From Patescibacteria group bacterium (lineage in GTDB: Bacteria > Patescibacteriota > Patescibacteriia > UBA1558), in assembly GCA_016784445.1 (NCBI GenBank), contig JADHUR010000002.1, positions 31,092 through 95,091 of the forward strand: a stretch of DNA of 64,000 bases, given 5' to 3'. This document shows, one piece after another, positions 5,401 through 34,172 of the stretch (within the stretch, counting starts at the first letter, position 1; every line of letters begins with the position of its first letter). Under the pieces are notes generated by a model, which worked only from the letters and a program-made list of their open reading frames with translations, was not told where the DNA came from and ran no database searches. The translations under genes and the position numbers were made by a program.

Positions 5401-5818
5401 TATGTTAAAACTAAATCACCTTGTTGAAGATAAGATTCACCAACGTTCAATCGGACCTTATTCACTTGTTACTCAACAACCTCTTGGTGGTAAAGCACAA
5501 TTTGGTGGTCAGAGATTCGGTGAGATGGAAGTTTGGGCTTTAGAAGCATATGGAGCTGCTCACATGCTACAAGAAATATTGACTATTAAGTCAGATGATG
5601 TGCCGGGAAGAAGTAAGGCCTATGAAGCAATCATTAAAGGCGAACCAATTGATAAAGTTAATATACCTGAATCATTTAATGTTCTCGTTAGAGAGCTTAA
5701 AGGTTTAGGACTTGATGTTGATCTTATGAAAAATAAGAAATCTGCAAATGATGTAAAAGTTGAAGAAAAGGATGAAGCAGAAGAAACAGAAGACAAGCAA
5801 AAAGAAGACAAAGAATAA
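2411..5818 (+). CDS. rpoB: DNA-directed RNA polymerase subunit beta
   Basis: 1135-aa protein with canonical RpoB motifs throughout (for example [13 protein letters not shown] and [10 protein letters not shown]); acidic C-terminal tail. Confidence 0.97.
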
Positions 5819-5844
5819 TATAATTATTTAACTATATATATCAT

Positions 5845-8800: not shown

Positions 8801-9753
8801 CTGGTACTCAGCTTACTATGAGAACCTTCCATACTGGTGGTGTTGCAGCAGCTGGAGATATTACTCAAGGTTTGCCTAGAGTTGAAGAAATTTTTGAAGC
8901 AAGACAACCAAAGAGAAAAGCTATTCTAGCTGAAGAAGATGGTGAGATAGTTATAGATAAAGATATAGACTTAAGTATTAGAAAAGAAAGAACTATTGTT
9001 TACAAATACTTTGGACCAACATTAGAATCTCATCCATTCCATGAAGACTATGAATTGAAAGTAAAGAATGATGCTAAGATTAAAACTGGAGATGTAATCA
9101 TGGCACATATTGGTGGTAAGAAAACTATTACTGCCAAAAATGATGGCCAAATAAGAATTACAAAGACTGAATTACATGTCTTCTCACCTGTTGAGGCTAC
9201 AAAGGAAGTAATTATTCCACCTGGATATAGTCTATGTGTTAAAAATGGAGATAAGCTAAAGGCTGGCGATTCTTTAACAGAGGGAAGTATTGACCTTAAA
9301 GAACTTTATCTAAGAAAAGACAGAAGAGCAACTGAAAAATACATTATTAAAGAAATTATGTGGATATATTCATCTCAAGGACAAAAGATTAATATGAAGC
9401 ATATTGAAATAATTATTAGACAGATGTTCTCAAGAATAATGGTTATTGATTCTGGTGACAGTAATGTGTTACCTGGAGATATTACAACCTATTCAGAATT
9501 TGAAGAGGAAAACCAAAAAATAGCAGATCAAAAGGGTAAAGAATCAATTGGTGATGCTCTATTACTAGGTATTACAAAGGCCTCACTATCTACAGATAGT
9601 TGGCTATCTGCAGCTTCATTCCAAGAAACAGCCAGAGTCTTAATTGATGCAGCTATTACTGGTAAAGTTGACAAATTGAAGGGATTGAAGGAGAATGTAA
9701 TTATTGGTAGATTAATACCAGCAGGAACTGGGCTTATAGACAAGAAGAAATAA
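5845..9753 (+). CDS. rpoC: DNA-directed RNA polymerase subunit beta'
   Basis: 1302-aa protein with a zinc-finger CxxC pair near the N-terminus, the NADFDGD active site, and trigger-loop/bridge-helix regions. Confidence 0.97.
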
Positions 9754-9763
9754 AGCATACACA

Positions 9764-9793
9764 TTATATAGAAAACAGGGTCATTTTTGGCCC
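9764..9793 (+). terminator. rho-independent terminator after rpoC
   Basis: Stem aacaggg / ccctgtt followed by a T-run. Confidence 0.6.
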
Positions 9794-9872
9794 TGTTTTT
9801 GTATATATTTAAGTTGTAGAAAACACCTTAAAATGGTAAAATATACTCTGCTCAACAATATTTAAATTTAAA

Positions 9873-12125
9873 ATGGCTAAACAAAAAAAATCAAAAAAAG
9901 GTAAGAAAAATAGTGAGATCCTGTCTCCTGAGACCAAAAAAGGAATCTTTATTATACTTATATTCCTGATTGCTTTACTTGGACTATTATCTTTATTAGA
10001 TTCAGCTGGTGCCTTTGGCGCAATTGCCAATCAAATACTTGGACTAGTTCTAGGATGGGGTAAATGGATATTCCCATTATTATTATTAATGTGGGGATAC
10101 TTTCTCCTTAATCCTGATAAATATTTACTTAAGCCAAGTAATTATCTTGGGTTGTTTTTCGTAATACTTGGTTATTCTGGACTACTTGAACTTATTCATG
10201 ATTTTAATAATTTACAAGGAGGCTTTTCAGCTAATGAAGGTGGTGGATATATTGGCTATGCCATAACCCAACCATTACAACAAGCAATGGGAGGCTTTGC
10301 CTCTTTTGTAATATTACTAGGACTATTATTAATATCTATATTAATTTCTTTTAATATATCTTTAGATGAGCTTGGCAATAAGGTAAATATATTTAGGCTT
10401 CTATGGCTTAAAATTAAATCATTTTCTTTCAGCAGACCTAAAGTAGATTATGAGGATGATTATGAAGAAGAGGAAGAGTATGAAGAAGATGAATATGAAG
10501 AAGACGATGAAGAAGTTGAAGAAGAAGAGTATGAAGAAGATGAAGTAAATGATGGAAAAGATGAAGATATGAAAGAGCTCATTGAAATGCCTAAACCAAG
10601 GAAAAAAGCTCCACGTGTTAAAGTTCCTATGGATTTATTAGATGAGAATGGTGCTGAACCAACAAGCGGAGATATAGATGCATCGGCTGAGAAAATTAGA
10701 AAAACTTTTGAAAACTTTAATATTGAGGTAGCTATGGGTGAAGCTAATATTGGCCCAACAGTTACACAATTTACATTCAAACCAGCAGACGGAATAAAAC
10801 TATCTCAAATAACTGCCTTAGATAGAGATATAGCCCTTGCTCTTGCTGCTAAACGTATCCGTATTGAAGCCCCAATTCCTGGTAAATCACTAGTTGGAGT
10901 TGAGGTTCCAAATAAGAAAGTAGCTGTAGTTAAATTAAGAGAAATTATTGAATCAGACGCTTTTCAAAAGGGCTCTAAACCCCTTGTTACTGCTCTTGGT
11001 AAAGATGTCTCTGGGGAGTGCAAGGTTACATATATTTCTAAAATGCCTCACTGTTTAATCGCAGGTGCTACAGGCTCTGGTAAAAGTGTTTGTCTTAATG
11101 CTTTTATTATTAGCTTACTATACAAATATCATCCTGAAGAATTGAAATTTATAATGGTAGACCCAAAGAGAGTTGAGCTGTCTATCTATAATAATATTCC
11201 TCATTTACTGACTCCAATTATTACAGAAATTCCGAAAACTATTAATGCCCTGCGCTGGGCTGTTAGCGAAATGGAAGAAAGATATAAGCTATTACAAAGT
11301 GTCGGTAAAAAAGACATTGAATCATATAATAGTAGTGTCTTAGTAAATAGAATGCCATATCTTGTAATAGTAATAGATGAGCTTGCTGAGCTTATGGTTA
11401 TTAATCCAAAAGATGTTGAACCTTCAATTATCAGACTAGCACAACTTGCTAGAGCGGTTGGTATTCACTTAGTAATTGCCACCCAAAGACCTTCAACCAA
11501 TGTTATTACAGGGCTCATTAAGGCTAATATTACAACTAGAATTGCTTTCTCAGTTGCTTCAAATGTTGACTCTCGTACCATTATTGATTCACCTGGAGCA
11601 GAAAAGCTACTTGGCAATGGAGATATGTTATATACCTCTTCTGAATTACCTGAACCAAGAAGAATACAAGGTGCATTTGTAAGTGAAAAAGAAATACAGC
11701 GCGTAGTAAACTTCTGGAAAGAACAAGGTGAGCCAGAATATGATGATGCTATTGTTGAAAGGCAAAAAGTTGGTAGTATGCCAGGAAATGCACTTGGAGG
11801 TGGAAATGATGAAGACGAATTGCTAATGGATGCTCAAGAAGTTGTAGTTAAAGCAGGCAAAGCTTCAGCATCATTACTACAAAGAAGATTAAGGGTTGGT
11901 TATGCTAGGGCTGCTAGTATTTTAGATATGCTAGAAGAAAAAGGAATTGTTGGGCCACCTAATGGAGCTAAGCCTCGTGAAATATTAATAAGACAAGAAG
12001 ACCTAGAAGAGAATTTAGATATGAGAGAATATACAGACGGCTGGGAAGACGAAGAAAAGTCTGAAGAAAACGAAAACCGCACAGAACAAAATGAAGACGA
12101 CGAAGACGAAGAAGATAAAGAATAA
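9873..12125 (+). CDS. ftsK: DNA translocase FtsK/SpoIIIE
   Basis: N-terminal transmembrane segments, an acidic low-complexity linker, a Walker A motif (GATGSGKS), a Walker B motif (VIVIDELAEL), and a C-terminal gamma winged-helix (LLQRRLRVGYARAASILD). Confidence 0.9.
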   Translation: MAKQKKSKKGKKNSEILSPETKKGIFIILIFLIALLGLLSLLDSAGAFGAIANQILGLVLGWGKWIFPLLLLMWGYFLLNPDKYLLKPSNYLGLFFVILGYSGLLELIHDFNNLQGGFSANEGGGYIGYAITQPLQQAMGGFASFVILLGLLLISILISFNISLDELGNKVNIFRLLWLKIKSFSFSRPKVDYEDDYEEEEEYEEDEYEEDDEEVEEEEYEEDEVNDGKDEDMKELIEMPKPRKKAPRVKVPMDLLDENGAEPTSGDIDASAEKIRKTFENFNIEVAMGEANIGPTVTQFTFKPADGIKLSQITALDRDIALALAAKRIRIEAPIPGKSLVGVEVPNKKVAVVKLREIIESDAFQKGSKPLVTALGKDVSGECKVTYISKMPHCLIAGATGSGKSVCLNAFIISLLYKYHPEELKFIMVDPKRVELSIYNNIPHLLTPIITEIPKTINALRWAVSEMEERYKLLQSVGKKDIESYNSSVLVNRMPYLVIVIDELAELMVINPKDVEPSIIRLAQLARAVGIHLVIATQRPSTNVITGLIKANITTRIAFSVASNVDSRTIIDSPGAEKLLGNGDMLYTSSELPEPRRIQGAFVSEKEIQRVVNFWKEQGEPEYDDAIVERQKVGSMPGNALGGGNDEDELLMDAQEVVVKAGKASASLLQRRLRVGYARAASILDMLEEKGIVGPPNGAKPREILIRQEDLEENLDMREYTDGWEDEEKSEENENRTEQNEDDEDEEDKE

Positions 12126-12877: not shown

Positions 12878-13900
12878 ATGACAAAAAAAGACACTGCCAA
12901 AAAAGATCGTGGTAATGCAGCAATTGCTGCAATCGATCAAATAAATGAAAAGTTTGGTGATGGCGCAATCATGAGATTTGGTGAAGCCAAAATCATGGAA
13001 GTAGATGCTGTATCTACTGGCTGTTTATCACTAGATATATCACTAGGCATAGGTGGAGTTCCTAGAGGCAGAATTATTGAAATCTACGGGCCCGAGGCTT
13101 CTGGTAAAACAACTCTTGCGCAACACATAGTAGCTGAAGTTCAAAAGGCTGGTGGTACAGCAGCATTTGTTGATGCCGAACATGCCCTAGACCCAGAGTA
13201 TGCTAAAAAAATTGGAGTAAATGTTGACGAATTATTAATTTCACAACCAGACACTGGGGAACAAGCATTAGAAATCACTGAAACACTTGTGCGCTCAAAT
13301 GGTATTGATGTCGTTGTGGTAGATTCAGTAGCGGCTCTTGTTCCAAGAAAAGAAATTGAAGGAGAAATGGGAGATTCACATGTTGGTTTGCAAGCAAGAC
13401 TTATGAGTCAGGCTCTAAGAAAATTATCCGGTGTTGTTTCAAAGAGTAATACTGTTCTAATTTTTATTAATCAAACTAGGATGAAGATAGGAATTATGTT
13501 TGGTAATCCAGAAACAACATCTGGTGGCATGGCATTAAAATTCTATTCATCTGTACGTATTGAGGTTCGCAAGGCAGCTCAACTGAAAAAAGGAGAGAAA
13601 TTTATTGGTAATAGAGTTCGCTGTAAGATTGTAAAGAATAAAGTTGCTCCGCCTTTTCAAAATTGTGAATTTGATATTATGTATAATGAAGGTATTTCAA
13701 TTGCAGGAGATATAATAGATCTAGGAGTTGAGAAAGGCATAATCAAGAAAGCGGGCGCTAGCTACAGTTATGGAGAGGAAAAATTGGGTGTAGGCAGAGA
13801 AACGGCTAAACAATACATTAAATCAAACAAGAAATTAATAGATAAAATTAGAGCCGAGATTTGGAAAATTGTTAAAGAAGAGAGAGTAGCTGATAAATAA
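12878..13900 (+). CDS. recA: recombinase RecA
   Basis: Walker A motif GPEASGKTT, plus [10 protein letters not shown] and the L1/L2 loop regions. Confidence 0.97.
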
Positions 13901-17524: not shown

Positions 17525-18922
17525 ATGATATCTAAAACAAAACTCACAATTCTTACTCTAATTCTTATTTCCATGCCATTGATGGGTTTTGGTTGTAAAT
17601 TCTCTCAGAGTTCTGAGGTTGAACAACTATATAAACCTATTGAATTAAATTGGTGGGGAGTTTGGGAAGAAACGGCTGATGTTGCAACTTTAATTAATGC
17701 ATATCAGACAATTCATCCAAATATTAAAGTAAAATATAGAAAATTTCGTTTTGAAGAATATGAAGCTGAATTAACAAAAGCATGGCTTGAACAAAGAGGG
17801 CCAGAAATATTTTCTATACCCTCTACTCTTTTAAGACAGTATGAGAACTTAATAAAACCTATGCCCTCTTCAATGAGAATTCCTTTCCTTGAAATAAAAA
17901 AAGGTCTTAAAGAAGAACAAATTATTACAGTGAAGACAATCTCTGGTTTAACCCCTAAAAAAGTACAAGAACTATTTGCTCCTGTAGTGCATGAACAAGT
18001 TATTATTAATGATGAGGTTTATGGCCTTCCACTCAGTGTTGATACTTTAGCTCTTTATTATAATAGAGATCTATTAAATAGTGCTAAAATTCCATTACCA
18101 GCTACTACTTGGGCCGAACTTGTAGAACATGTAAAGGATCTTACCACCTATGATAATGATGGTAATATATTGCAATCTGGAATTGCTTTAGGTTCGGCTA
18201 ATAATATTCCTCGTGCTAATGATATACTTTCCTTATTAATGATGCAGAACGGTGCACAAATGACTGGTGATAATAATTATGCAACCTTTAATCAAGCTCC
18301 ACCAGACCAGGGAAGATTTTATCCTGGCAAGGATGCTTTAGAGTTTTATGTAGACTTTATTGATCCTACAAAGGAAGTTTATTCATGGACAGAAGATAAA
18401 CCTGATGCATTAGAGATGTTTACTTCAGGAAAACTTGCTTACTTTATTGGTTATGCTTATCAAGCACCAATTATAAAAGCTCAATCACCTAAATTAAATT
18501 TTAATATATCTCCAATGCTACAAACTGTTCCTGATGTACAAGAAGTTAATTTTGCAGATTTCTGGGCATTAACAACCTATTTTGGTGCTGCAGAAGAGAA
18601 GCTTTCACCTGCTTGGGATTTCATTAGATATATTACTACCACTCCTGAACTTACGAAGAAATACCTTGAAGAAAGCAAACAACCAACCGCATTACTGTCA
18701 CTTATAAATGACCAGATACAAACTGAAAGCATGGGCATTTTTGCAGATCAAGTTTTAAATGCACGTGCTTGGTATAGAGGTTATGACGCAGCAGAAGCAG
18801 ATAATGCTATGAGTGATCTTATTTATCAAGCATATCATAATGTTTCAAGCGAACTGGCAACTATAGATATATTGGACTTAACAGTTCGTAGAATTAATCA
18901 AACAATTAGAAAACCTGAATGA
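17525..18922 (+). CDS. lipoprotein resembling an ABC-type extracellular solute-binding protein (family 1)
   Basis: Lipobox MGFGC. An LNWWGVWEE...IKVKY N-terminal region typical of type-1 SBPs. ATG 17525 is preferred over the upstream TTG of the ORF track. The stop overlaps the start of the first pilin-like gene (ATGA). Confidence 0.5.
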   Translation: MISKTKLTILTLILISMPLMGFGCKFSQSSEVEQLYKPIELNWWGVWEETADVATLINAYQTIHPNIKVKYRKFRFEEYEAELTKAWLEQRGPEIFSIPSTLLRQYENLIKPMPSSMRIPFLEIKKGLKEEQIITVKTISGLTPKKVQELFAPVVHEQVIINDEVYGLPLSVDTLALYYNRDLLNSAKIPLPATTWAELVEHVKDLTTYDNDGNILQSGIALGSANNIPRANDILSLLMMQNGAQMTGDNNYATFNQAPPDQGRFYPGKDALEFYVDFIDPTKEVYSWTEDKPDALEMFTSGKLAYFIGYAYQAPIIKAQSPKLNFNISPMLQTVPDVQEVNFADFWALTTYFGAAEEKLSPAWDFIRYITTTPELTKKYLEESKQPTALLSLINDQIQTESMGIFADQVLNARAWYRGYDAAEADNAMSDLIYQAYHNVSSELATIDILDLTVRRINQTIRKPE

Positions 18923-19587
18923 AGAAATTATTATTAGTTTTATTTTTATTACTTTTGCCAGTTCTTGCAAGCGCATCTGTTTTTCAAGACCCAAGTTACT
19001 ATCCTTACGAGGATCAGGTTGAACATCAAAATGACCCTGGCTTTTTTACAAATCAAGAAAACTATGATCAATCATGCATAGCAGATGGAAGCTGTTCTCT
19101 AGATCAAGGGTTTAATACTTTTGTTGTTTTATCTAAATGGGCCATGGGAATACTTGGTAGTATATCTCTACTATTTTTCATAATCGGTGGAATCATGTGG
19201 CTTACTTCCGGCGGAAAACCAGGCCCAATTCAACAAGGTAAAAGTATAATGATTAGCACAGTAATTGGAATAATAATTGTAATGAGTTCATGGTTAATAG
19301 TTCAGGCCGTCCTCACCTCTCTTTCAGATAGAACTCTGCAAGGTTTAGATGGCGGAAGTCAAACACAAGATCTTTGTTCAACTGAATTAGATGAAGGTGA
19401 TTCATGTCGTGGTAATCTTGGAATTTGTCAGGGTGGTATTTGTGTTGAAAAATGTACCGCAACAAATACCAGACCTCCAGGCGGTGGATATGATTGTAGA
19501 GAATTTACAGATTGCGATGAAGATTCTATTATAAGAATGTATTGCTTCGGTTCAAATAGTACTGTTTGTTGTCAGGCGTCTCAATAA
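18919..19587 (+). CDS. VirB2/TrbC-like two-TM pilin-family protein with a Cys-rich C-terminal extension (array member 1)
   Basis: Signal peptide, then a variable N-terminal segment, then the core GGIMWLTSGG-KPGPIQQGK-second TM, then about 90 aa containing 10 Cys. Confidence 0.5.
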   Translation: MKKLLLVLFLLLLPVLASASVFQDPSYYPYEDQVEHQNDPGFFTNQENYDQSCIADGSCSLDQGFNTFVVLSKWAMGILGSISLLFFIIGGIMWLTSGGKPGPIQQGKSIMISTVIGIIIVMSSWLIVQAVLTSLSDRTLQGLDGGSQTQDLCSTELDEGDSCRGNLGICQGGICVEKCTATNTRPPGGGYDCREFTDCDEDSIIRMYCFGSNSTVCCQASQ

Positions 19588-19603
19588 TAAATAAATAAAA
19601 TAT

Positions 19604-19939
19604 ATGAATAAAAAACTTATTAATTTCATAATAGCTTTCTCAATTCTATTAATAATAGTAGCTATTCCAGTCCAAGCAACAAATATTAACAACCCCCTAA
19701 CTGTAGATAGCCCTCAAGAGTTGGTAGGGGTCATTATTAAGGCGCTACTTGGTCTAACAGGTACAATTTCACTTATTTACTTTATTATTGGTGGTTTTAT
19801 GTGGATGACAGCGGGCGGAAATAAAGATAATGTCCAAAAAGGTAAAAATACACTAGTCTGGGCAACCCTAGGACTTGTTATAATATTCTCTGCTTACAGT
19901 ATTCTAACCTTTGTTTTTGACATATTACCAACCAATTAA
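19604..19939 (+). CDS. VirB2/TrbC-like pilin-family protein (array member 2)
   Basis: Signal peptide (AxA cleavage site), TM1 ending in GGFMWMTAGGN, a basic loop KDNVQKGK, then TM2. Confidence 0.5.
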   Translation: MNKKLINFIIAFSILLIIVAIPVQATNINNPLTVDSPQELVGVIIKALLGLTGTISLIYFIIGGFMWMTAGGNKDNVQKGKNTLVWATLGLVIIFSAYSILTFVFDILPTN

Positions 19940-20028
19940 ATTGTTAAAATCAGTAAATTATAGTATAATATTTCTATAATTAGTGTATAATAATTAAAAT
20001 ATCCTTAATAAAGTGTAATTAAAAAACT

Positions 20029-20418
20029 ATGAGTAAAAAGTTAATTTTTCTTTTGGTGCTAGTTTCTTTACTAGCTCTACCAATGATACAAACAGTTCAC
20101 GCATCTCCATCATCTGGAGACGTAAGAGCTTTAACCGGAATAGATGAAGATGTAACTAATCCCGGACTAGGGGAAGAAGACCTAGATGTTGTTGTACAAG
20201 AAATTATCAAAGTTATTCTTGGCTTCTTAGGCTTAATTGCCGTTGTCATTATATTAGTGGGTGGATTCTTCTGGATGACAGCTGGTGGTAATGAAGATAA
20301 TGTTAAAAAAGGTAGAAAGTGGATTATTAATGGTGTTATTGGCCTTCTTATCGTTCTTTCAGCTTATGCTATTGCAGAATTCGCAATTTCAAACGCTGCT
20401 GACGTAACAACACAATAA
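20029..20418 (+). CDS. VirB2/TrbC-like pilin-family protein (array member 3)
   Basis: Signal peptide, acidic N-terminal ectodomain, GGFFWMTAGGNEDNVKKGR core, TM2. Confidence 0.5.
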   Translation: MSKKLIFLLVLVSLLALPMIQTVHASPSSGDVRALTGIDEDVTNPGLGEEDLDVVVQEIIKVILGFLGLIAVVIILVGGFFWMTAGGNEDNVKKGRKWIINGVIGLLIVLSAYAIAEFAISNAADVTTQ

Positions 20419-20470
20419 AAAATAAATAATTATTAACTTGCCCACGAAAGGGGGCTATATAAATAAATAT

Positions 20471-20830
20471 ATGAACAAAAAAGCATTTGCAATCATTATG
20501 GTTGTAGCAATCATGGCAGTTCCTATGCTAGGCATGGCAGCTCCAGATTTAGGCCTTGACGACGCACAAGCAATTGGCTTAGGCGACGCTGGTGTTAAAG
20601 ATATTGTTAACAATATCATTTCTATTATCCTAGGCTTTCTAGGATTAATAGCTGTTATCCTTATCCTAATTGGTGGATTCTTATGGATGACTGCTGGTGG
20701 TAATGAAGATAGAGTTAAGAAAGGTAGACAGTATATTATTAATGGTGTTATCGGATTGATCATCATTTTAGCTGCTTACGCTATCGCTTCTTTCGTAATT
20801 ACAAACCTTGTAGACGCAACTACAACTTAA
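20471..20830 (+). CDS. VirB2/TrbC-like pilin-family protein (array member 4)
   Basis: Close paralog of member 3 (GGFLWMTAGGNEDRVKKGR). ATG 20471 is preferred over the upstream start in the ORF track. Confidence 0.5.
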   Translation: MNKKAFAIIMVVAIMAVPMLGMAAPDLGLDDAQAIGLGDAGVKDIVNNIISIILGFLGLIAVILILIGGFLWMTAGGNEDRVKKGRQYIINGVIGLIIILAAYAIASFVITNLVDATTT

Positions 20831-20892
20831 ATTTATAGTCTAGACTATAGCGGATCATATTTATATGGTCCGCCTAAGCTTAAACTATATAA

Positions 20893-21279
20893 ATGAAAAT
20901 GACTTCAAAAAAATTAAACCTTTTGATTGTGGCTATATTTGTTATAGTCTTTTTTTCTATCCTATTTACAAGCCCTATACTTGCTATTGAAACAGGGTTA
21001 GACGAAACAGCGGGTATGGCTGGGTTTGAAACAGGAGCAACCGCAAAAACTCCTCCACAAATAGTAGCGAGTGTTATTCAAATAGCTCTAGGTTTTGTAG
21101 GGACACTATTCTTAATCTTTATCATTGTGTCTGGCTTTCAATGGATGACTGCTGGTGGCAATGCTACAACAATTGAAACGGCAAAGAAAAGAATAATAAA
21201 TGCAACTATTGGCCTTGTTATAATACTTGCTGCATATGCAATTACTCAATTCGTTCTAATAGAGATTGTAAACTTATAA
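20893..21279 (+). CDS. VirB2/TrbC-like pilin-family protein (array member 5)
   Basis: Core SGFQWMTAGGNATTIETAKKRIINA; shares blocks that are identical at nucleotide level with members 6-8. Confidence 0.5.
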   Translation: MKMTSKKLNLLIVAIFVIVFFSILFTSPILAIETGLDETAGMAGFETGATAKTPPQIVASVIQIALGFVGTLFLIFIIVSGFQWMTAGGNATTIETAKKRIINATIGLVIILAAYAITQFVLIEIVNL

Positions 21280-21282
21280 TAT

Positions 21283-21711
21283 ATGAAAAAATATTTACTC
21301 TTAATTACTCTTTGTTCTCTAATTCTTTTCTCTTCAGTATTAGTTACTAAAGCTGCATTATTAAACCAAGATGGCCTAACGGCAATAGGTGATCAGACAA
21401 TGGAATTTGGAGCTGATGCTGGCTACAATCCTGATGATATGACTCCATTACCAGTAAGAATAGGGAATATAATACAAATAGCTCTAGGCTTCGTAGGGAC
21501 ACTCTTTCTAATTCTAATCATTGTATCTGGTTTTCAATGGATGACTGCTGGTGGCAATGCTACAACTATAGAAACAGCAAAAAAAAGAATAATAAATGCT
21601 ATTATAGGCTTAGCTATTGTATTGGCCGCCTACAGTATAACCTGGTTTGTCACAGAACAAGTACTAGGTGTTACTGGAGTTATAGAATTACAAGAAGAAG
21701 TATTACAATAA
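21283..21711 (+). CDS. VirB2/TrbC-like pilin-family protein (array member 6)
   Basis: Same core; a 59-nt run identical to member 7; the N-terminal ectodomain is variable. Confidence 0.5.
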   Translation: MKKYLLLITLCSLILFSSVLVTKAALLNQDGLTAIGDQTMEFGADAGYNPDDMTPLPVRIGNIIQIALGFVGTLFLILIIVSGFQWMTAGGNATTIETAKKRIINAIIGLAIVLAAYSITWFVTEQVLGVTGVIELQEEVLQ

Positions 21712-21715
21712 ATAT

Positions 21716-22123
21716 ATGAATAAACACTTATTTTACACAGCAGCCCTACTAACAATCATCGTGCTATCCTCTCTCTTTGTACTAAACCCTTCTGTACAAG
21801 CATCTAATGTACAAGACGGCCTTAGACAAGTTGGCGGTGAAGCATATTACAATGACGGCACTATGGAGCCTGCAGAAGCAAACCCAACCAATATTGTGGG
21901 TAGTATTATAGAAATTGCTTTAGGTTTTTTAGGAATAATTTTCGTAATACTAATTATAGTATCAGGTTATCAATGGATGACTGCTGGTGGCAATGCTACA
22001 ACTATAGAAACAGCAAAAAAAAGAATAATCAATTCTGTAGTCGGACTACTTATTGTTCTAACAGCCTTTACAATAACTCTAGAAGTATTAAATAGAACAG
22101 GCGATATATTAACAAATAATTAA
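21716..22123 (+). CDS. VirB2/TrbC-like pilin-family protein (array member 7)
   Basis: Core SGYQWMTAGGNATTIETAKKRIINS. Confidence 0.5.
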   Translation: MNKHLFYTAALLTIIVLSSLFVLNPSVQASNVQDGLRQVGGEAYYNDGTMEPAEANPTNIVGSIIEIALGFLGIIFVILIIVSGYQWMTAGGNATTIETAKKRIINSVVGLLIVLTAFTITLEVLNRTGDILTNN

Positions 22124-22127
22124 ATCG

Positions 22128-22541
22128 ATGTTAAAAACAAGAAACAAGCAATTCTTCCTAAAAATATTCTTATTTTGTTTTTTGTTTATTATAATTTCTG
22201 CTCCTGCTTTACATGCCTCAGATGAAGTAATAGATAAAAATTTTGTTAAAGTCCTTAATGTTCAGAAGAATGCAATAGGAAACAATGATGAAACATCTGT
22301 ATCAACTATTATTATAAATATTCTTAAAATTGCATTAAGCTTTTTAGGAATACTCTTTGTTATTTTAATTATATGGTCAGGAGCTCAGTGGATGACCGCT
22401 GGTGGCAATGCAACAACAATTGAAACGGCAAAGAAAAGAATAATAAATTCTGTAATAGGCCTGGTAATAGTTTTAGGAGCCTTTGCTATAACAGAGTTTG
22501 TTCTAGACAATTTAATATCTGCTGTTGAAACAGAACAATAA
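22128..22541 (+). CDS. VirB2/TrbC-like pilin-family protein (array member 8)
   Basis: Core SGAQWMTAGGNATTIETAKKRIINS; a 36-nt block identical to member 5. Confidence 0.5.
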   Translation: MLKTRNKQFFLKIFLFCFLFIIISAPALHASDEVIDKNFVKVLNVQKNAIGNNDETSVSTIIINILKIALSFLGILFVILIIWSGAQWMTAGGNATTIETAKKRIINSVIGLVIVLGAFAITEFVLDNLISAVETEQ

Positions 22542-22542
22542 T

Positions 22543-22926
22543 ATGAAATATAAATTTATAACAATAAGCGCCCTATTAATATTTGTTTTTTTATTTAGCA
22601 TACAAGCTCAGGCAAGTGGTCTAAGTGATTTGGTTAATAGTGAGCTCGACACCGTTCAAGAGGGTATTACTGGCTCGACAACAGCAGCAAGTTTAGAAAA
22701 TATTATTATAAATATTGTTCATACGGTTTTAGGTTTTCTTGGATTAATATTTGTTGTTCTAATGATATGGTCAGGCTATCAATGGATGACATCTGGAGGA
22801 AATACAACCGCAATAGAAACTGCTAAGAAAAGAATCATAAATGCAGTAATTGGACTTGCTATTGTACTTGCAGCTTACTCCATAACTGAATTTTTAGTTA
22901 TACAAGTACTAAACGCTGTAAATTAA
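22543..22926 (+). CDS. VirB2/TrbC-like pilin-family protein (array member 9)
   Basis: Core SGYQWMTSGGNTTAIETAKKRIINA. ATG 22543 is preferred, which avoids overlap with member 8. Confidence 0.5.
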   Translation: MKYKFITISALLIFVFLFSIQAQASGLSDLVNSELDTVQEGITGSTTAASLENIIINIVHTVLGFLGLIFVVLMIWSGYQWMTSGGNTTAIETAKKRIINAVIGLAIVLAAYSITEFLVIQVLNAVN

Positions 22927-22971
22927 ATACAATAAAAACAGCTATATAGCTGTTTTTTTATTTACCCCGTT

Positions 22972-24552
22972 TTACTGTACAAAATAGACCCAGGCGTCAT
23001 TATCTTCGTAGACAAGGTCAAAGTATATATTGCCCTCTAACTGCTCATTTAGGGCAGTTTTTTGCTTATTAACGAGTATATAGTCTGCGTCTAGCTTTCC
23101 TTTTAATAGCGCATAGACATTCTTACTACTTTTACCGTTCATAATATCAATATAGTCGTCTTTAGATTGATAATATTTATTACTTATGATGTTTTCGTCA
23201 AGCCCCCACCAATATCTATTATTATCATTATAATAAAATAAAGGTGCCCAATCTTCATAATCACTATTAATAATTAATGCATTATCTGGTGTGTGATAAT
23301 ATAACCACTCTGCTACAGGTTGCATATAATTTAAGCTATATTTATCTTTAATATCATTTAATGCATAATAAGTTGCCATTGGAAAAGACAGAATCACTAT
23401 TAATAAAATAGTTTTTATAGATAATCTTATTGCTTTAGATGAAAACAAATTAATCAGTGCGCTATTGAGACCTCTTCCCTTAAAACCATCTCTTAATATC
23501 AATGAAGATGTTAGAGATAATAGAATTAACAATAATCCCCCTCCCCATTGCACAAAAATATATACAATCGTAAACACCACTGTTAAAACAAATAAATTAA
23601 CGGTTAGTTTGGATAGTCTACTTTTAGAGAATAGTGCCGTTAAAACTCCAGACAAAAAAACCATGAAAATAATTATTGCTCCAGATAATAATTTGCTCAA
23701 ACTAAGTAATGCTCCTCCAGAATCATTATGCGTAGTTCTGTTTACAATTTGCTCTCCATAGAAAGATAAGCTCTCGGGCCAATAAGGATGAGCAATTAGT
23801 CCTATAATAACTCCCGCTAAACAAAATATTAATATTAACCACTTTTTTCTTCCCACCCCACTACGTAATCCTAACTTTCTCATCACCCAATCTTTTAGAT
23901 TTCCAAATCTTGTACCGAAATTATCTAAACTGTACTTGTGATACACAAATTCTATAATAAGCCACACCATAGCAATGAGTAAAAGAAAAACAAATTGGCC
24001 CGTTAACAAGACAATAAGCACACTTAATATTCCTAGTTGCCAATATCTATAATTCACAATCAAGTCCAGGCCTATTAATAAAGATAATAATGATATAGCT
24101 TCCGGTCCAGAAAAACCTATCTCATTTAAAAAGAATATAGAGCTAAATAACAAAAGTACAAATAATTCAGGCCACACCCCTTCGTGTTTTTCTAGCCAAT
24201 AATATACATAGGTTGCCAAAAAACCAATAAATAATGCACCAAATAATTTAACAACCAAAAAGGTAGGTAAAAATCCTATAAATAAACTAAGAAAGAAATG
24301 GTATAGCCAATTATTATCTGCAAATCCATCACTATAATTTGTTGACTCTAACCAATTAAAATTGTCTAATTTTAGCGAATTTTCGGATAATTCTATCATT
24401 TTAGATTGATAGAAGAAATCTGTTGTAAGAAAATTAGGAGTCGCCTGTATCCAGGAGAATAATATAAAGACAATTAAAAAAACCAGTAGGTAATTCAACC
24501 TATGATCTTTAATAAAATGTAATAGTTTTTGCCAATTGTTCTGTACTAGCAT
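22972..24552 (-). CDS. polytopic integral membrane protein, possibly a GT-C-fold glycosyltransferase (ArnT/PMT-like architecture)
   Basis: About 10 N-terminal TM helices plus a roughly 140-aa C-terminal soluble domain. Convergent with the pilin-like array. An extended -10 element (TGaTATAAT) lies 6 nt upstream of the ATG. Confidence 0.3.
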   Translation of the reverse strand: MLVQNNWQKLLHFIKDHRLNYLLVFLIVFILFSWIQATPNFLTTDFFYQSKMIELSENSLKLDNFNWLESTNYSDGFADNNWLYHFFLSLFIGFLPTFLVVKLFGALFIGFLATYVYYWLEKHEGVWPELFVLLLFSSIFFLNEIGFSGPEAISLLSLLIGLDLIVNYRYWQLGILSVLIVLLTGQFVFLLLIAMVWLIIEFVYHKYSLDNFGTRFGNLKDWVMRKLGLRSGVGRKKWLILIFCLAGVIIGLIAHPYWPESLSFYGEQIVNRTTHNDSGGALLSLSKLLSGAIIIFMVFLSGVLTALFSKSRLSKLTVNLFVLTVVFTIVYIFVQWGGGLLLILLSLTSSLILRDGFKGRGLNSALINLFSSKAIRLSIKTILLIVILSFPMATYYALNDIKDKYSLNYMQPVAEWLYYHTPDNALIINSDYEDWAPLFYYNDNNRYWWGLDENIISNKYYQSKDDYIDIMNGKSSKNVYALLKGKLDADYILVNKQKTALNEQLEGNIYFDLVYEDNDAWVYFVQ

Positions 24553-25813: not shown

Positions 25814-26521
25814 ATGTCCGGACACTCCAAATGGGCCACTACAAAACGTGCCAAAGAAGGTAAAGACGCAAAACGAAGCGGTCTTTTTACTAAATTAGCT
25901 AAAGCAATTTCTATTGCCGCTAGAGATGGTGGCGATCCAGAAATGAATTTCAAACTTCGAATGGCCATAGATAGAGCTAAAAAGCTGAGCCTTCCAAAAG
26001 ATAATATTGATCGTGCAATTAAATCTGGAACAGGCGAAAATGGTGGAGCAATAATTGAAGAAATTACCTATGAGGGTTATGGACCTGGTGGAATAGCTCT
26101 TATTATTGAAACGATTACTGATAATAAAAATAGAACCGTTGGTGAGGTTAAACATATGCTCAGTAAATATGGTGGTAATTTGGGTGGGAGCGGAAGTGTA
26201 ATGTGGATGTTTGATAGAAAAGGAGTCATCTATTTAGAAAGCTCTTCCATAAATGAAGAGCAAGAATTAATAATAATTGATGCGGGTGCTGAAGATATTA
26301 TTACTGATGACAATTCTGTTATTATATACACCTTAGATAGCGACCTTCATAAAATTAAGGAGCAATTAGAAAAAAATGGTTTTGATATTTCTGACAGTAA
26401 ATTAGAATTTGTTCCAAAAGACAAAGCTGCAGTTGAAAGTGAAGAAAAAGTACTTAGAATACTAGACGCTCTTGATGATCTTGATGATGTTCAAAATATT
26501 TATACTAATGCAGACATTTAA
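25814..26521 (+). CDS. yebC: YebC/PmpR-family transcriptional regulator
   Basis: MSGHSKWATTKRAKEGKDAKRSGLFTKLAKAISIAARDGGDPEMNFKLR is the canonical YebC N-terminus. Confidence 0.9.
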   Translation: MSGHSKWATTKRAKEGKDAKRSGLFTKLAKAISIAARDGGDPEMNFKLRMAIDRAKKLSLPKDNIDRAIKSGTGENGGAIIEEITYEGYGPGGIALIIETITDNKNRTVGEVKHMLSKYGGNLGGSGSVMWMFDRKGVIYLESSSINEEQELIIIDAGAEDIITDDNSVIIYTLDSDLHKIKEQLEKNGFDISDSKLEFVPKDKAAVESEEKVLRILDALDDLDDVQNIYTNADI

Positions 26522-27027
26522 TGTTTAAAAAGAAGAAACAAATAATTTTAGGAATTGATCCTGGCTTTGCAGATACCGGTTATGGTATTATTGAATTTGA
26601 AGGAAGCAAGTCTAAGATGCTTGACTATGGTTCTATTCAAACTCCAGCCAAACAAGATTTTGCTGATCGTTTAGAATATATATACAATGAACTTGTTGAA
26701 ATAATAAAAAAATACAAACCTCAAAGTATTGGAATTGAAAAACTTTTTTTTAATAAGAATGTAACGAGCGCTATTAAAGTAAGTCAAGCACGTGGAATTG
26801 TACTACTAGCTGCTAAACAATATGGTCTTAAAATACACGAATATACACCTCTTCAGATTAAACAATCTTTAACCGGCTATGGAAGAGCAGATAAGAACCA
26901 AATGCAACAAATGGTAAAAACTATACTGTCTCTAAAAGAAATTCCCAAACCTGATGATGCTGCAGATGCCCTAGCAATAGCACTTTGTTGCTCTGCTAGT
27001 CAAAAACTTGAAAATTTAAGCAAATAA
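26521..27027 (+). CDS. ruvC: crossover junction endodeoxyribonuclease RuvC
   Basis: ILGIDPGFADTGYGII and DDAADALAIAL catalytic motifs; classic yebC-ruvC linkage. Confidence 0.9.
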   Translation: MFKKKKQIILGIDPGFADTGYGIIEFEGSKSKMLDYGSIQTPAKQDFADRLEYIYNELVEIIKKYKPQSIGIEKLFFNKNVTSAIKVSQARGIVLLAAKQYGLKIHEYTPLQIKQSLTGYGRADKNQMQQMVKTILSLKEIPKPDDAADALAIALCCSASQKLENLSK

Positions 27028-31428: not shown

Positions 31429-32529
31429 TTATTGCCGGATCGGCATTACTATATACAAGTATCCCTCTTTATTATCCGGTACAAAAACCCCTGGAGCACC
31501 TTGATTGGAGGTTTTTATTATCACTTGTTCTGATTGTAAGTTATTTAGGCCATCAAGTAAATAGCGATAATTAAAGACTATTTCCACCTCTTCACCCTTA
31601 ATTTCGGCCCCTATATTGGTTATGTTCTCTCCTAATCCACTGTTTGTTGACAGGATAACCACTTCATTCTTTGAAGGTATAATAGTCATTTTTATATCAT
31701 TAATCCCTGTCTTACAGAACAATGCAGCACCTTTAATCGCCTTGATTAAATCCTCTGCCTTTACTCTAGTTATTGTCTTTTCGTCGCTGGGTATAATTTG
31801 TTCATAATCTGGGTAATTTCCGTCAATTAAACGAGATGTTAGAACTATATTACTTGAGCTAAACGCAACTTGATTCTCATTTAAATATAAACTAATATTC
31901 TTTTCTGTGCTGTTTGCTAATATTCTACCAAGCTCCTGAAGTGTCTTAAGTGGAATAATAATCTTCTGATCAATGCTACCATCTACCTTTATTTTCTTTT
32001 CTGCTAATCTATAACTGTCTGTTGCAGCAACTGTTAAGTCTTGACCTTTAAAGTTAAAAAATACTCCACTAATTTCTGGCCTATTATCGTCTAGCGTTGC
32101 AGCAAATACTGTTTGACTCAAAACTTCTTTAAAAGTTTGCATATCTATATTAACTTTTTTCTCTGAACTAACATCTGGTATTAGAGGGTAGTCCTCTGAA
32201 AGCATTCCTTTAATTTGAGTTTGAGAATTTTTACAACTTACATTTAGTCCATCCGTTTCTAAATCTATATCTACATTCTCATTCGGTAATAATGAAACAA
32301 AGTCAGAAAATAAACGAGCCGGAACAGTATATGAACCTTCTATTTCTATTTTTCCTCTCACCGTAACTTTGATACCAATTTCTAAGTTGGTTGTAGATAA
32401 TGTAATTATTCCATCTTTAGCATCTATTAAAACATTATTCAAGATTGGAAGGTTTGCATTATGAGAAGCTAAATGATTTACAATGTTTAAACCATTATTT
32501 AAATTTTCTCTTGTGCATATGAATTTCAT
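31429..32529 (-). CDS. dnaN: DNA polymerase III beta sliding clamp
   Basis: 366 aa with a three-domain clamp pattern; the N-terminal MKFICTRENL...NLPILNNVLI is typical of DnaN; immediately downstream of dnaA. Confidence 0.9.
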   Translation of the reverse strand: MKFICTRENLNNGLNIVNHLASHNANLPILNNVLIDAKDGIITLSTTNLEIGIKVTVRGKIEIEGSYTVPARLFSDFVSLLPNENVDIDLETDGLNVSCKNSQTQIKGMLSEDYPLIPDVSSEKKVNIDMQTFKEVLSQTVFAATLDDNRPEISGVFFNFKGQDLTVAATDSYRLAEKKIKVDGSIDQKIIIPLKTLQELGRILANSTEKNISLYLNENQVAFSSSNIVLTSRLIDGNYPDYEQIIPSDEKTITRVKAEDLIKAIKGAALFCKTGINDIKMTIIPSKNEVVILSTNSGLGENITNIGAEIKGEEVEIVFNYRYLLDGLNNLQSEQVIIKTSNQGAPGVFVPDNKEGYLYIVMPIRQ

Positions 32530-32786
32530 TATTATTATATTAATTTATTATATTTTATATAGTTATAGTAGTAAGGGCTGTTGATATGTTGATAAGCTAC
32601 TATATAGCTGTATGGGGAAGGGCTTTTATGATGGTCCTTTGAGTTGATAAACAGGGAGGAAAAATTTAATGATTTGTTAGTAACTTTTATTTTATCTTTA
32701 TCTGTGTGTATAAGTTTATTTTTATAAACAGTTATGTGTGATTTATCAACGAGGCTAGGGTTTTAATAAACAGACTTATTAACAAT
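32530..32786. promoter_or_regulatory. candidate oriC segment: DnaA-box cluster plus an AT-rich unwinding element in the dnaA-dnaN spacer
   Basis: At least five 9-mers match TTATCAACA / TGTTGATAA with zero or one mismatch, for example at 32579-32587, 32587-32595, 32643-32651 and 32748-32756. A near-pure A/T stretch lies at 32530-32570. Confidence 0.5.
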
Positions 32787-34172
32787 TTATGATGCGTATA
32801 GTTGTTGTCTTATTAATTCTATATCACTTTTTGTCTTGCTGTCATTCTTGATTTGGCCAGTTATTTTATTACATGCGTGTATTGCTGTGGTGTGATCTCT
32901 GCCTCCGAGCTCCTGCCCAATAGAAGGATATGAGCTTTTTAATTCTTCTCTCATAAGCCACATAGTAATCTGTCTTGGGAAGACTAATTCCTTTCTTCTG
33001 CTACTACCCATTAGATCTGCCATTGATATGTCGTAGAAATCAGCCACCTTTGTAGCTATCTTTTTTGGAGTTAAACCACTTTTCTTTGCACTAAGAGATA
33101 AAGAGCCTAATACACTTTTAACTGATTCTAATGTAATTTCTGAGTTGTTTAGTTGTTGATAGGCAATTATTCTGTTTAAAGCACCCTCCAATTCTCTAAT
33201 ATTGCTTTGTATGTTTTCAGAGACAAAAGCAAGTACATCTGGAGAAAGGGTAATTCCCTTTTCGTGGCACTTAGCCTCTAAAATAGCATATCTTGTTTCC
33301 ATATCAGGAGCACCAATATCTGCAATCATTCCCCATTCAAAACGAGAGATTAATCTCTGCTCAACTTCAGCAATAGCTTTTGGAGGCCTATCGGAAGTCA
33401 TAACAATCTGCTTATTCTTCTGATGCAATTCATTAAAGGTGTGAAAGAACTCTTCTTGAGTTTGTTCCTTGCCAGCTATAAATTGAATATCATCTATTAA
33501 TAATACATCAACTGTACGATAATATTTTTTCAACTCATCAGTAGTTCCCTTTTTAATTGAGTTAATAAAATCATTAACAAACTTTTCTGTATTTAAATAA
33601 ACAATTCTAATTTTCGGATCCTTAGCAAGAAGAGAGTTTCCAATAGCTTGTAATAAATGAGTTTTACCCAGTCCAACTCCTCCATATAAGAAGAGGGGGT
33701 TATATACTTCTCCTGGTTTATTAACCACTGCATTAGCAGCAGCTGTCGCTAAGTCATTTCCTTTTCCAACAATGAAAGAGTCAAACGTATATTTAGGATT
33801 TAAATTAAAATTATTTTGTGCTGGCTTAGGAGCCTCATTAGTGGAAGATTTCGATTCATCAGCTTGATCATCTTTAGTTGAATTTGCTACATGATTTTTT
33901 ATTTGATCAGGATTCTGATCTTTATTAGAAGCTACTTTATATATAACAGAATCAATTTTACCTTGGCTGCTTTTATTTAAAGCAGTTAGGATGTGATCAT
34001 GATACTTATTTTCAAGCCAAGCTTTTGTAAAGGCATTTGGCACACCAACCACTATATTACTTTCATCAACAGAGTGAATAAAAGTATTTTTAAACCAAGT
34101 AGTAAAGTTAGCTTTAGAAATTGTCAGTTCAAGTTCGCCTAGTACAGCGTCCCACAATTGATTTGTTAACAT
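32787..34172 (-). CDS. dnaA: chromosomal replication initiator DnaA
   Basis: AAA+ Walker A motif GGVGLGKTHL, the sensor and box VII regions, and a C-terminal DNA-binding helix-turn-helix. Confidence 0.95.
   Translation of the reverse strand: MLTNQLWDAVLGELELTISKANFTTWFKNTFIHSVDESNIVVGVPNAFTKAWLENKYHDHILTALNKSSQGKIDSVIYKVASNKDQNPDQIKNHVANSTKDDQADESKSSTNEAPKPAQNNFNLNPKYTFDSFIVGKGNDLATAAANAVVNKPGEVYNPLFLYGGVGLGKTHLLQAIGNSLLAKDPKIRIVYLNTEKFVNDFINSIKKGTTDELKKYYRTVDVLLIDDIQFIAGKEQTQEEFFHTFNELHQKNKQIVMTSDRPPKAIAEVEQRLISRFEWGMIADIGAPDMETRYAILEAKCHEKGITLSPDVLAFVSENIQSNIRELEGALNRIIAYQQLNNSEITLESVKSVLGSLSLSAKKSGLTPKKIATKVADFYDISMADLMGSSRRKELVFPRQITMWLMREELKSSYPSIGQELGGRDHTTAIHACNKITGQIKNDSKTKSDIELIRQQLYAS

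Follow-up and report, generated by a model that had tools for sequence, protein, structure and literature searches.

Probable short-tract gene conversion at the inter-helix turn of tandem type IV secretion system pilin genes in a Patescibacteria genome

Introduction

Do neighbouring copies in a tandem array of pilin genes exchange sequence and, if so, which part of them and since when? We addressed this question for nine consecutive co-oriented genes, here called m1 to m9, which an open reading frame (ORF) list places on the + strand at positions 18919-22926 of a 64,000-nucleotide (nt) stretch of contig JADHUR010000002.1 from a Patescibacteria group bacterium. This whole stretch is called the window. 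As seen in an alignment, all nine proteins share one layout: they begin with a signal peptide and a variable segment of 30-60 residues, after which come two hydrophobic helices separated by the motif WMTAGGN and then a basic stretch. A first-pass annotation of this DNA had noticed identical runs in the conserved part of m5 to m9, next to 5′ parts that could not be aligned, and had taken them as the sign of ongoing gene conversion by the mechanism of pilin antigenic variation.

Gene conversion among tandem paralogs is a well-known process, and this array is a new instance of it, datable to after the split from the nearest relative. Identical tracts in excess of chance expectation, and with a polarity relative to that relative (the metagenome locus L016), mark a single short block in m5 to m8. 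They make it very probable that short-tract gene conversion of an ordinary type acted among these four paralogs in the lineage of the window after the L016 split.

Results

A mosaic block shared by m5 to m8

The genes m5 to m8 encode an identical 21-residue peptide, QWMTAGGNATTIETAKKRIIN, which comprises the end of helix 1, the turn and the start of helix 2. The corresponding 63-nt blocks and the exact tracts that they contain are listed in Table 1. The exact run common to m6 and m7 is 60 nt long (and not 59, as first reported) and is present twice only, while the 36-nt version common to m5 and m8 is found just as it had been described. Both runs had 0 occurrences in 100 dinucleotide shuffles. 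The resemblance between m5 and m6, presented as near identity over about 100 nt, had been overstated: it amounts to 87% over 138 nt (21076-21213 versus 21472-21609) with an exact core of 35 nt. Only short exact patches are seen in its helix-1 part, where the differences are mostly synonymous.

The idea that the conserved core is a patchwork of alternative cassettes corresponds to a genuine mosaic, as judged by the grouping of informative sites. Four consecutive sites in codons 117-122 pair m5 and m8 against m6 and m7; sites upstream of these codons group m5 with m6, or m5 with both m6 and m7. The nearest paralog of m5 changes along the block, from m6/m7 over 21136-21170 to m8 over 21166-21201. 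The 5′ parts are indeed unalignable at the DNA level. In a protein-guided alignment, nucleotide identity of the variable parts is 32-42% among m5-m9 and 28-53% across all nine genes, and no tract in these segments is common to any two paralogs. All paralog tracts of at least 30 nt in the array fall on the conserved block and none carries variable N-terminal parts.

Synonymous identity is in excess in the block and at chance level in the flanks

Codon usage for the expectation was taken from 21 long ORFs of the window (GC content of the genome is 34% and its codon usage is skewed), which gives a chance identity of about 0.46 per codon in the block. With this codon usage and given identical amino acids, 20 identical codons in two independent draws have P = 3.5e-7, and the 12 identical codons TTIETAKKRIIN have P = 9e-5. 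At amino-acid-identical codons of the block, codon identity was 18/19 for m6/m7, 16/19 for m5/m8, 15/19 for m5/m6 and 14/19 for m5/m7, for 8.8 expected. The same pairs showed 8/26, 5/26, 12/33 and 6/26 identical codons in the flanking helices. These values are at or below expectation, and synonymous sites in the flanks look saturated. Fisher tests of block versus flank on synonymous codons gave 1.2e-5, 1.8e-5, 3.3e-3 and 9e-4, respectively. In a GENECONV-like permutation of polymorphic sites, the m6/m7 tract was globally significant (P about 0.002-0.003).

The m9 gene, initially counted as a member of the mosaic, has no part in it. Despite nearly the same peptide, its block shares only 7-8/16 codons with those of m5-m8, the chance level, and it is orthologous to the L016 copy, from which it differs at 3/63 positions.

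The block is nearer to its paralogs than to its orthologs in L016

L016 (FLOH01000161.1) is the closest relative found in a metagenome scan, with 89% nucleotide identity over 10.6 kb and the nine genes in the same order. Genes or sequence of the window are designated W and their L016 counterparts X, X5 being the L016 ortholog of m5. Each W gene has its positional ortholog as nearest sequence in helices 1 and 2, whereas in the block the W genes resemble one another most. Thus W6 and W7 differ at 1/63 block positions, compared to 12/63 for W6-X6 and 13/63 for W7-X7, while in helix 1 the differences are 6/81 for W7-X7 versus 27/81 for W7-W6. Consistently, synonymous divergence (dS) of the m7 orthologs reaches saturation only in the block, the values for helices 1 and 2 being 0.31 and 0.54. 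Block dS between orthologs stays at background for m8 (0.51) and m9 (0.16).

Quartet sites display the same switch. For m6/m7, the ratio of sites supporting orthology to sites supporting concerted evolution is 21:2 in the flanks and 0:4 in the block (P = 8.5e-4). It is 14:1 in the flanks versus 1:4 in the block for m5/m6, and 13:0 versus 1:3 for m5/m7. As to polarity, W5 = W8 = X8 but not X5 at 10 block sites and the reverse pattern occurs at 0 sites; the same comparison for m5-type sequence in m6 and in m7 gave 5:0 each. Quartet analysis of m3/m4 returned 91 orthology versus 3 concerted sites, that is, no conversion in this pair since the split. Codon identity in the block reaches 0.75 when W paralogs are compared with each other, but only 0.49 for X paralogs and 0.56 when W genes are paired with non-orthologous X genes. 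Family-wide constraint at the nucleotide level therefore cannot explain the W pattern.

Two outgroup loci, L003 and L017, keep ortholog-specific loop residues (RMIN of the m6 type and RMVN of the m7 type), and L016 retains them. In W, these residues of m6 and m7 are replaced by RIIN of the m8/m9 type. Moreover, block divergence among W paralogs is 1-3 per 63, less than the background between orthologs, which is about 7 per 63. The loss of these residues in W only, together with this low divergence, argues that the conversions occurred in the W lineage after the L016 split. The sequence TTIE.AKKR is common to m5-m9 of W and of L016 and is found in neither L003 nor L017, which suggests earlier rounds of homogenisation before the split.

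Taken together, the chance-level synonymous flanks, the greater similarity of the block to paralogs than to L016 orthologs and the quartet switch exactly at the block support the earlier view that the synonymous patchwork results from recombination and not from purifying selection alone.

Divergence from L016 is uneven along the array

From the N-terminal part of m5 to the m6 block (~20950-21600, compared to ~4850-5480 of L016), identity falls from ~90% to 40-75% and synonymous divergence is saturated. For m5, dS exceeds 1.2 in the helix-1, block and helix-2 segments; m6 is saturated up to the block and then drops to 0.52. These features suggest that recombination brought in a divergent allele in place of this segment, the right edge of which is at the conserved block. 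In X5, 14 codons of helix 1 are deleted and the N-terminal part has an insertion, the L016 genes being otherwise all complete. The N-terminal part of m6 evolves fast between W and L016 (nonsynonymous divergence, dN, 0.74; dS 0.97). At the other extreme, m4 is 95.5% identical to its L016 ortholog and 100% identical over about 120 nt (20651-20770), with a dS of 0-0.2, whereas the neighbouring pilin genes have a dS of 0.3-2. The array is therefore a mosaic of very different levels of W-L016 divergence.

Assemblies of the same population

Three other assemblies that span both copies of the 60-nt repeat match the window across the array, L001 having one mismatch at 26769, outside the array. Assembly chimerism was considered as the source of the tracts and rejected. 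Eight contigs carry m8: four with the complete nine-gene array, L002 covering m4-m9, the shorter fragments L073 and L074, and the hybrid L071. Aligned contigs other than L071 are identical to the window over the array. Exact-protein look-ups returned only identical array copies, L071 and fragments broken at the repeat. Clusters of m5-m9 proteins at 90% identity hold only window-identical proteins (some with different start calls), a hybrid protein, P0005, and the L016 m8 ortholog, and contain no strain between the window and L016.

P0005, found by the cluster look-up, is a fusion of the m6 N-terminal part to the m7 C-terminal part. It is encoded by L071 (ENA ERZ24794656 NODE_204653, 3495 bp, 4x coverage), which corresponds to window 19514-21593 joined to 22030-23444, i.e. 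a 436-bp deletion with its junction inside the 60-nt tract, and is otherwise identical to the window. This contig is either a product of unequal crossing-over or the result of a de Bruijn assembler skipping the loop of a repeat longer than k; an artefact is more likely. The repeat does disturb assembly, as L073 and the Logan contig L074 are both broken exactly there: L073 begins with the last 55 nt of the m6 copy, and L074 with the last 30 nt of the m7 copy. The description of conversion as ongoing thus finds no support here, as full-length assemblies are identical across the array and the lone hybrid contig may be an artefact. More generally, exact 60-nt repeats break or collapse short-read assemblies, and counts of pilin genes in metagenome-assembled genomes may therefore be too low.

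The nine proteins are type IV secretion system pilins

All nine proteins (9/9) are above the gathering score of PF18895 (T4SS_pilin), with 31.2-42.4 bits for a cut-off of 26.6, and m2 and m9 also pass that of PF04956 (TrbC/VirB2). No Pfam match to type IV pilin families was obtained for any of them. The products of m1-m9 are pilins of the type IV secretion system (T4SS), VirB2/TrbC-like, and not type IV pilins. Each gene is a complete ORF: it has a start codon and encodes the signal peptide as well as both helices. In an AlphaFold2 model of m7, helices extend over residues 3-22, 57-89 and 94-134, with a turn at AGGN (90-93) and a predicted local distance difference test score of 80-94 for the hairpin. 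A PDB sequence search with an m5-m9 profile gave no match at E <= 1. Foldseek comparison of the model with the PDB gave a best E of 0.94, for unrelated helical proteins, helical hairpins not being discriminating.

A conversion model

Non-reciprocal homologous recombination between neighbouring paralogs would overwrite a block of ~35-65 nt, which encodes the AGGN turn together with the last part of helix 1 and the first, basic part of helix 2, and would thus lead to segmental concerted evolution. The nine-gene array itself is old, since 8-9 syntenic genes are found in several related genomes. At least three events would have occurred after the L016 split: transfer of m8-type sequence to the 3′ half of the m5 block, transfer of m5-type sequence to the 5′ half of the m6 and m7 blocks, and homogenisation of m6 and m7, leaving 60 identical nt. 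The m8-type and m5-type sequences are the inferred donors. The exchanges may be RecA-dependent, as recA and ruvC are encoded nearby. They could start at the near-invariant TGG ATG ACN GCN GGN GGN AAT, the only stretch with enough identity to pair. Tracts might be kept short by the collapse of homology on both sides or by selection against conversions into diverged parts.

Given the topology of F-pilin, transferred here by family homology only, the converted block would be the inward-facing turn and the unconverted N-termini would be exposed. Plausibly, the paralogs retain one shared interface towards the assembly machine, lipid or lumen as their surfaces diversify; the homogenised turn next to diverging exposed parts hints that they share one partner at the turn and differ outward. 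A more far-reaching proposal, which we consider possible but rather doubtful, is that recurrent turn-targeted conversion maintains one genome-specific lumen- or cytoplasm-facing loop on all paralogs, for a single assembly machine or for co-polymerisation, while the exposed N-termini diversify. The block might then also be a crossover point for hybrid genes or copy-number variants, with L071 as the first example.

Several points weigh against conversion within the array as we describe it. In the permutation test, the m5/m8 tract is only pairwise significant (P = 0.02) and so is that of m5/m6, and informative sites are few, 4-10 per comparison. Polarity comes from a single close relative, whose m5 and m6 are unusually divergent. 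No tract polymorphism within the population was seen among the identical assemblies, which leaves 'ongoing' unproven. That RecA is required, or that a uniform loop brings any benefit, is inferred. Among related arrays, the trend to homogenisation is modest, the best loop match being in the own array for 22% of 224 genes versus 9-12% for the helices, and an excess of synonymous identity is absent in several genomes, e.g. L004.

Alternative explanations

Identical runs could arise without recombination if purifying selection keeps the peptide invariant and codon usage is AT-biased. The 21 residues are indeed invariant in m5-m8, and 34% GC with skewed codons brings chance identity to ~0.46 per block codon. 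However, P = 3.5e-7 for 20 identical codons was obtained with this very codon usage, m9 remains at chance level with nearly the same peptide, and X paralogs and non-orthologous W-X pairs, whose block peptides are near-identical, reach only 0.49-0.56 codon identity versus 0.75 in W. We therefore regard this explanation as extremely improbable. Selection acting on the nucleotides themselves (mRNA structure, a regulatory site or a translational pause) would also keep bases identical, and could account for the recurrence of excess synonymous identity in the same block across many Patescibacteria arrays. It appears very unlikely, though, in view of the m6 and m7 ortholog blocks, in which W and L016 differ more than they do in the flanks, the opposite of constraint. 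In addition, the same synonymous bases are not conserved per array position between W and L016, and two alternative synonymous versions are present within one array. No Rfam match was found, a scan of 18800-23000 at E <= 1 giving two sub-threshold chance matches outside the blocks, and a structural RNA constraint on the block was rejected since RNA folding of the four blocks was no better than that of shuffles (z +0.67 to -1.49). Recent tandem duplication with very rapid divergence of the variable parts is hardly credible either: the genes are tandem, co-oriented and of similar length, as it would predict, but synonymous sites in the flanks are at chance-level identity, the nine-gene order and positional orthologs exist in L016 (with 8-9 genes in L003, L004 and L006), and the m5 = m8 and m6 = m7 pairing fits no duplication of a tandem unit.

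The tracts could instead have been imported with DNA of other strains. The ~650 bp with saturated W-L016 synonymous divergence (about 20950-21600, from m5 into the m6 block) and the unusual conservation of m4 both suggest inter-lineage recombination in the array. Nevertheless, the array itself contains donor-type sequences for the block with 0-3 differences, which makes copying within the array more parsimonious, and no external donor was detected among 55 metagenome and 13 genome loci, so that we give import little probability. Programmed antigenic or copy-number variation, in which the conserved block would serve as an anchor for swapping or deleting variable cassettes in the population, might be suggested by L071, with its m6/m7 hybrid gene and its deletion joined inside the 60-nt tract, by the fast N-terminal parts (see m6 above) and by Bartonella and Anaplasma VirB2 arrays, for which a role in antigenic or host-range variation was proposed (PMC12102498, PMC2883598). 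L071, however, is a 4x-coverage contig that otherwise equals the window, the 60-nt repeat is longer than the k-mer size implied by the breaks of L073 and L074, and a skipped loop of the assembly graph would yield exactly this hybrid. Furthermore, no variable segment is common to any two paralogs, all nine genes are complete with no silent cassettes, and the known pilE/pilS systems use another pilin family. We consider such a programme improbable, and short-tract conversion within the array remains the preferred explanation.

Relation to known pilin systems

In Neisseria pilE/pilS, which are type IV pilins, silent cassettes without a promoter accompany a single expressed gene, and it is the variable exposed segments that are transferred by conversion. 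Non-reciprocal RecA-type conversion between pilin paralogs, with conserved stretches as homology anchors, would be common to both systems. In contrast to Neisseria, the genes here are complete T4SS pilin genes and it is the conserved buried turn that is homogenised, giving less variation and not more. The antigenic-variation mechanism initially proposed thus fails on the class of pilin, on the lack of silent cassettes and on the tracts, which never carry the variable, presumably exposed segments.

The Bartonella Trw T4SS (trwL = VirB2, trwJ = VirB5) is closer. Its trwL/trwJ tandem arrays are an established case of diversifying selection and concerted evolution in a T4SS pilin array (Nystedt 2008, as cited in PMC2883598). 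From what is reported there, it shares with m1-m9 a tandem array of VirB2-family genes (5-8 in Bartonella), variable surface parts and copy recombination or concerted evolution, which makes assignment of orthologs difficult (PMC2883598). Bartonella is an alphaproteobacterial pathogen with the array inside a complete trw T4SS operon, whereas the present host belongs to the Patescibacteria and no VirB4 or VirB6 was found among the window ORFs scanned. In the present array, only ~60 nt at the inter-helix turn are homogenised, and the genes otherwise keep their positional orthology.

Like F-pilus TraA/VirB2, the proteins have a signal peptide and, after it, two hydrophobic helices that form a hairpin with a short basic loop between them. 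The inter-helix loop of TraA is on the cytoplasmic side when the protein is in the membrane and borders the lumen once it is in the pilus, the termini pointing outward (PMC5018250). The searches above gave no PDB sequence match and no significant Foldseek match, so that for m1-m9 this topology is by family homology only.

Other Patescibacteria arrays

VirB2-like arrays are widespread in Patescibacteria and essential in the one genetically manipulable species (PMC12102498, PMC12857230), namely a six-pilin array in Ca. Southlakia epibionticum (Wang et al. 2023, as cited in PMC12857230). A survey describes highly variable tandem arrays of 2-11 divergent pilins in 383 Patescibacteria assemblies, with a mean identity of 25% and a maximum of 54%, a pilin gene near virB4 in only 1135/1948 assemblies and some T4SS genes close to dnaA (PMC12102498). 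The array here resembles these in its PF18895 and PF04956 families, its tandem arrangement and its position near dnaA; unlike them, it lies in a Komeilibacteria-like genome. The survey contains 0 occurrences of 'gene conversion' and does not mention copy recombination, whereas pairs here reach 60% identity with exact DNA tracts. Literature searches on Patescibacteria gene conversion and on PF18895/T4SS_pilin returned no description of this phenomenon.

Related loci contain arrays of 6-12 such genes. Loops are often array-specific, as in L003.6-8 (ST(A/V)ID(S/A)AKKR), L006.5-7 (EETIK), L008.2-4 (EDA(I/V)TKARKR) and L025 (EETVTKARKR). Exact paralog tracts of at least 30 nt were found in 17 other Patescibacteria arrays, on the same block with one exception. 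The block-versus-flank test across 31 loci used the same-amino-acid comparison; pairs are not independent and z values are only indicative. A pooled version of this test without correction for amino-acid composition was judged biased, the block being rich in two-codon residues, and was set aside. In a distant locus, L014 (30% match), four consecutive genes at 3072-10845 encode proteins of 617-660 residues, each with a weak T4SS_pilin-like hairpin match, which look like giant tandem pilin-domain proteins.

Genomic context of the array

The closest genomes are those of Candidatus Komeilibacteria (Patescibacteria, or candidate phyla radiation), and identical proteins are deposited as 'Patescibacteria group bacterium' (MBL7021957-61). 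The neighbours of the array are chromosomal housekeeping genes: rpoB, rpoC, ftsK, recA, a solute-binding-protein gene, ruvC, dnaN and dnaA. The array is chromosomal and, because dnaN and dnaA (31429-34172, − strand; dnaA 32787-34172) lie about 9-10 kb downstream, origin-proximal. The ruvC gene is at about 26521-27027 by Pfam annotation of the L001 contig, from the same population, and like recA is permissive evidence only; both ruvC and dnaN were assigned from precomputed Pfam matches on this contig. No T4SS machinery (VirB4, VirB6, VirB3) was detected among 20 large ORFs scanned in the window, which include rpoBC, ftsK, recA, the solute-binding-protein gene, dnaA, yidC, nusA and an H+-pyrophosphatase gene.

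Table 1. Coordinates of the pilin genes, of the tracts and blocks within them, and of associated features (window positions)
Feature	Position	Strand	Description
recA	12878..13900	+	PF00154, E = 1.3e-134; permissive evidence only for recombination
m1	18919..19587	+	T4SS_pilin paralog with Cys-rich C-terminal extension; PF18895 E = 7.5e-11; L016 ortholog 87% nt
m2	19604..19939	+	T4SS_pilin/TrbC paralog; PF18895 E = 4.1e-9, PF04956 E = 4e-8
m3	20029..20418	+	T4SS_pilin paralog; m3/m4 subgroup, loop EDNVKKGR; no conversion after L016 split
m4	20471..20830	+	T4SS_pilin paralog, near-identical to L016 ortholog
m5	20893..21279	+	T4SS_pilin paralog; 3′ half of block probably received m8-type sequence
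35-nt exact tract, m5/m6	21136..21170 (m6 copy 21532-21566)	+	m5-type 5′ half of block; 33 nt also in m7
63-nt block, m5 copy	21139..21201	+	codes QWMTAGGNATTIETAKKRIIN
36-nt exact tract, m5 copy	21166..21201	+	identical to 22413-22448
m6	21283..21711	+	T4SS_pilin paralog; block probably homogenised with m7
60-nt exact tract, m6 copy	21534..21593	+	also junction of hybrid contig L071
63-nt block, m6 copy	21535..21597	+	codes QWMTAGGNATTIETAKKRIIN
m7	21716..22123	+	T4SS_pilin paralog; block probably homogenised with m6; ortholog dS saturated only in block
60-nt exact tract, m7 copy	21970..22029	+	identical to 21534-21593
63-nt block, m7 copy	21971..22033	+	codes QWMTAGGNATTIETAKKRIIN
m8	22128..22541	+	T4SS_pilin paralog; block-to-ortholog divergence at background, likely donor type
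63-nt block, m8 copy	22386..22448	+	codes QWMTAGGNATTIETAKKRIIN
36-nt exact tract, m8 copy	22413..22448	+	identical to 21166-21201
m9	22543..22926	+	T4SS_pilin paralog; no part in recent conversions
Terminator-like hairpin, then T run	22934..22957	+	closes array 3′ of m9

A gene for a 526-residue hydrophobic, apparently multi-pass membrane-type protein (22972-24552, − strand) converges on the end of the array; this protein has no Pfam match at E <= 1e-3 and none is on record for its copy in the L001 contig. Upstream, the ATG of m1 overlaps the stop codon of the solute-binding-protein gene (ATGA, 18919-18922), which suggests translational coupling. The tail of m1 (~19330-19584) adds ~85 Cys-rich residues after the hairpin (CSTELDEGDSCRGNLGICQGGICVEKC...); it is kept in L016 and a similar one is present in L017. 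Within m5-m9 the genes are only 1-4 nt apart, and a 62-nt spacer, 96-98% identical in L016, separates this tightly packed group from m1-m4. The spacer contains an inverted repeat at 20851-20874 (GCGGATCATAT-TT-ATATGGTCCGC) of 11 bp with a 2-nt loop and one G-U pair, and no T run after it.

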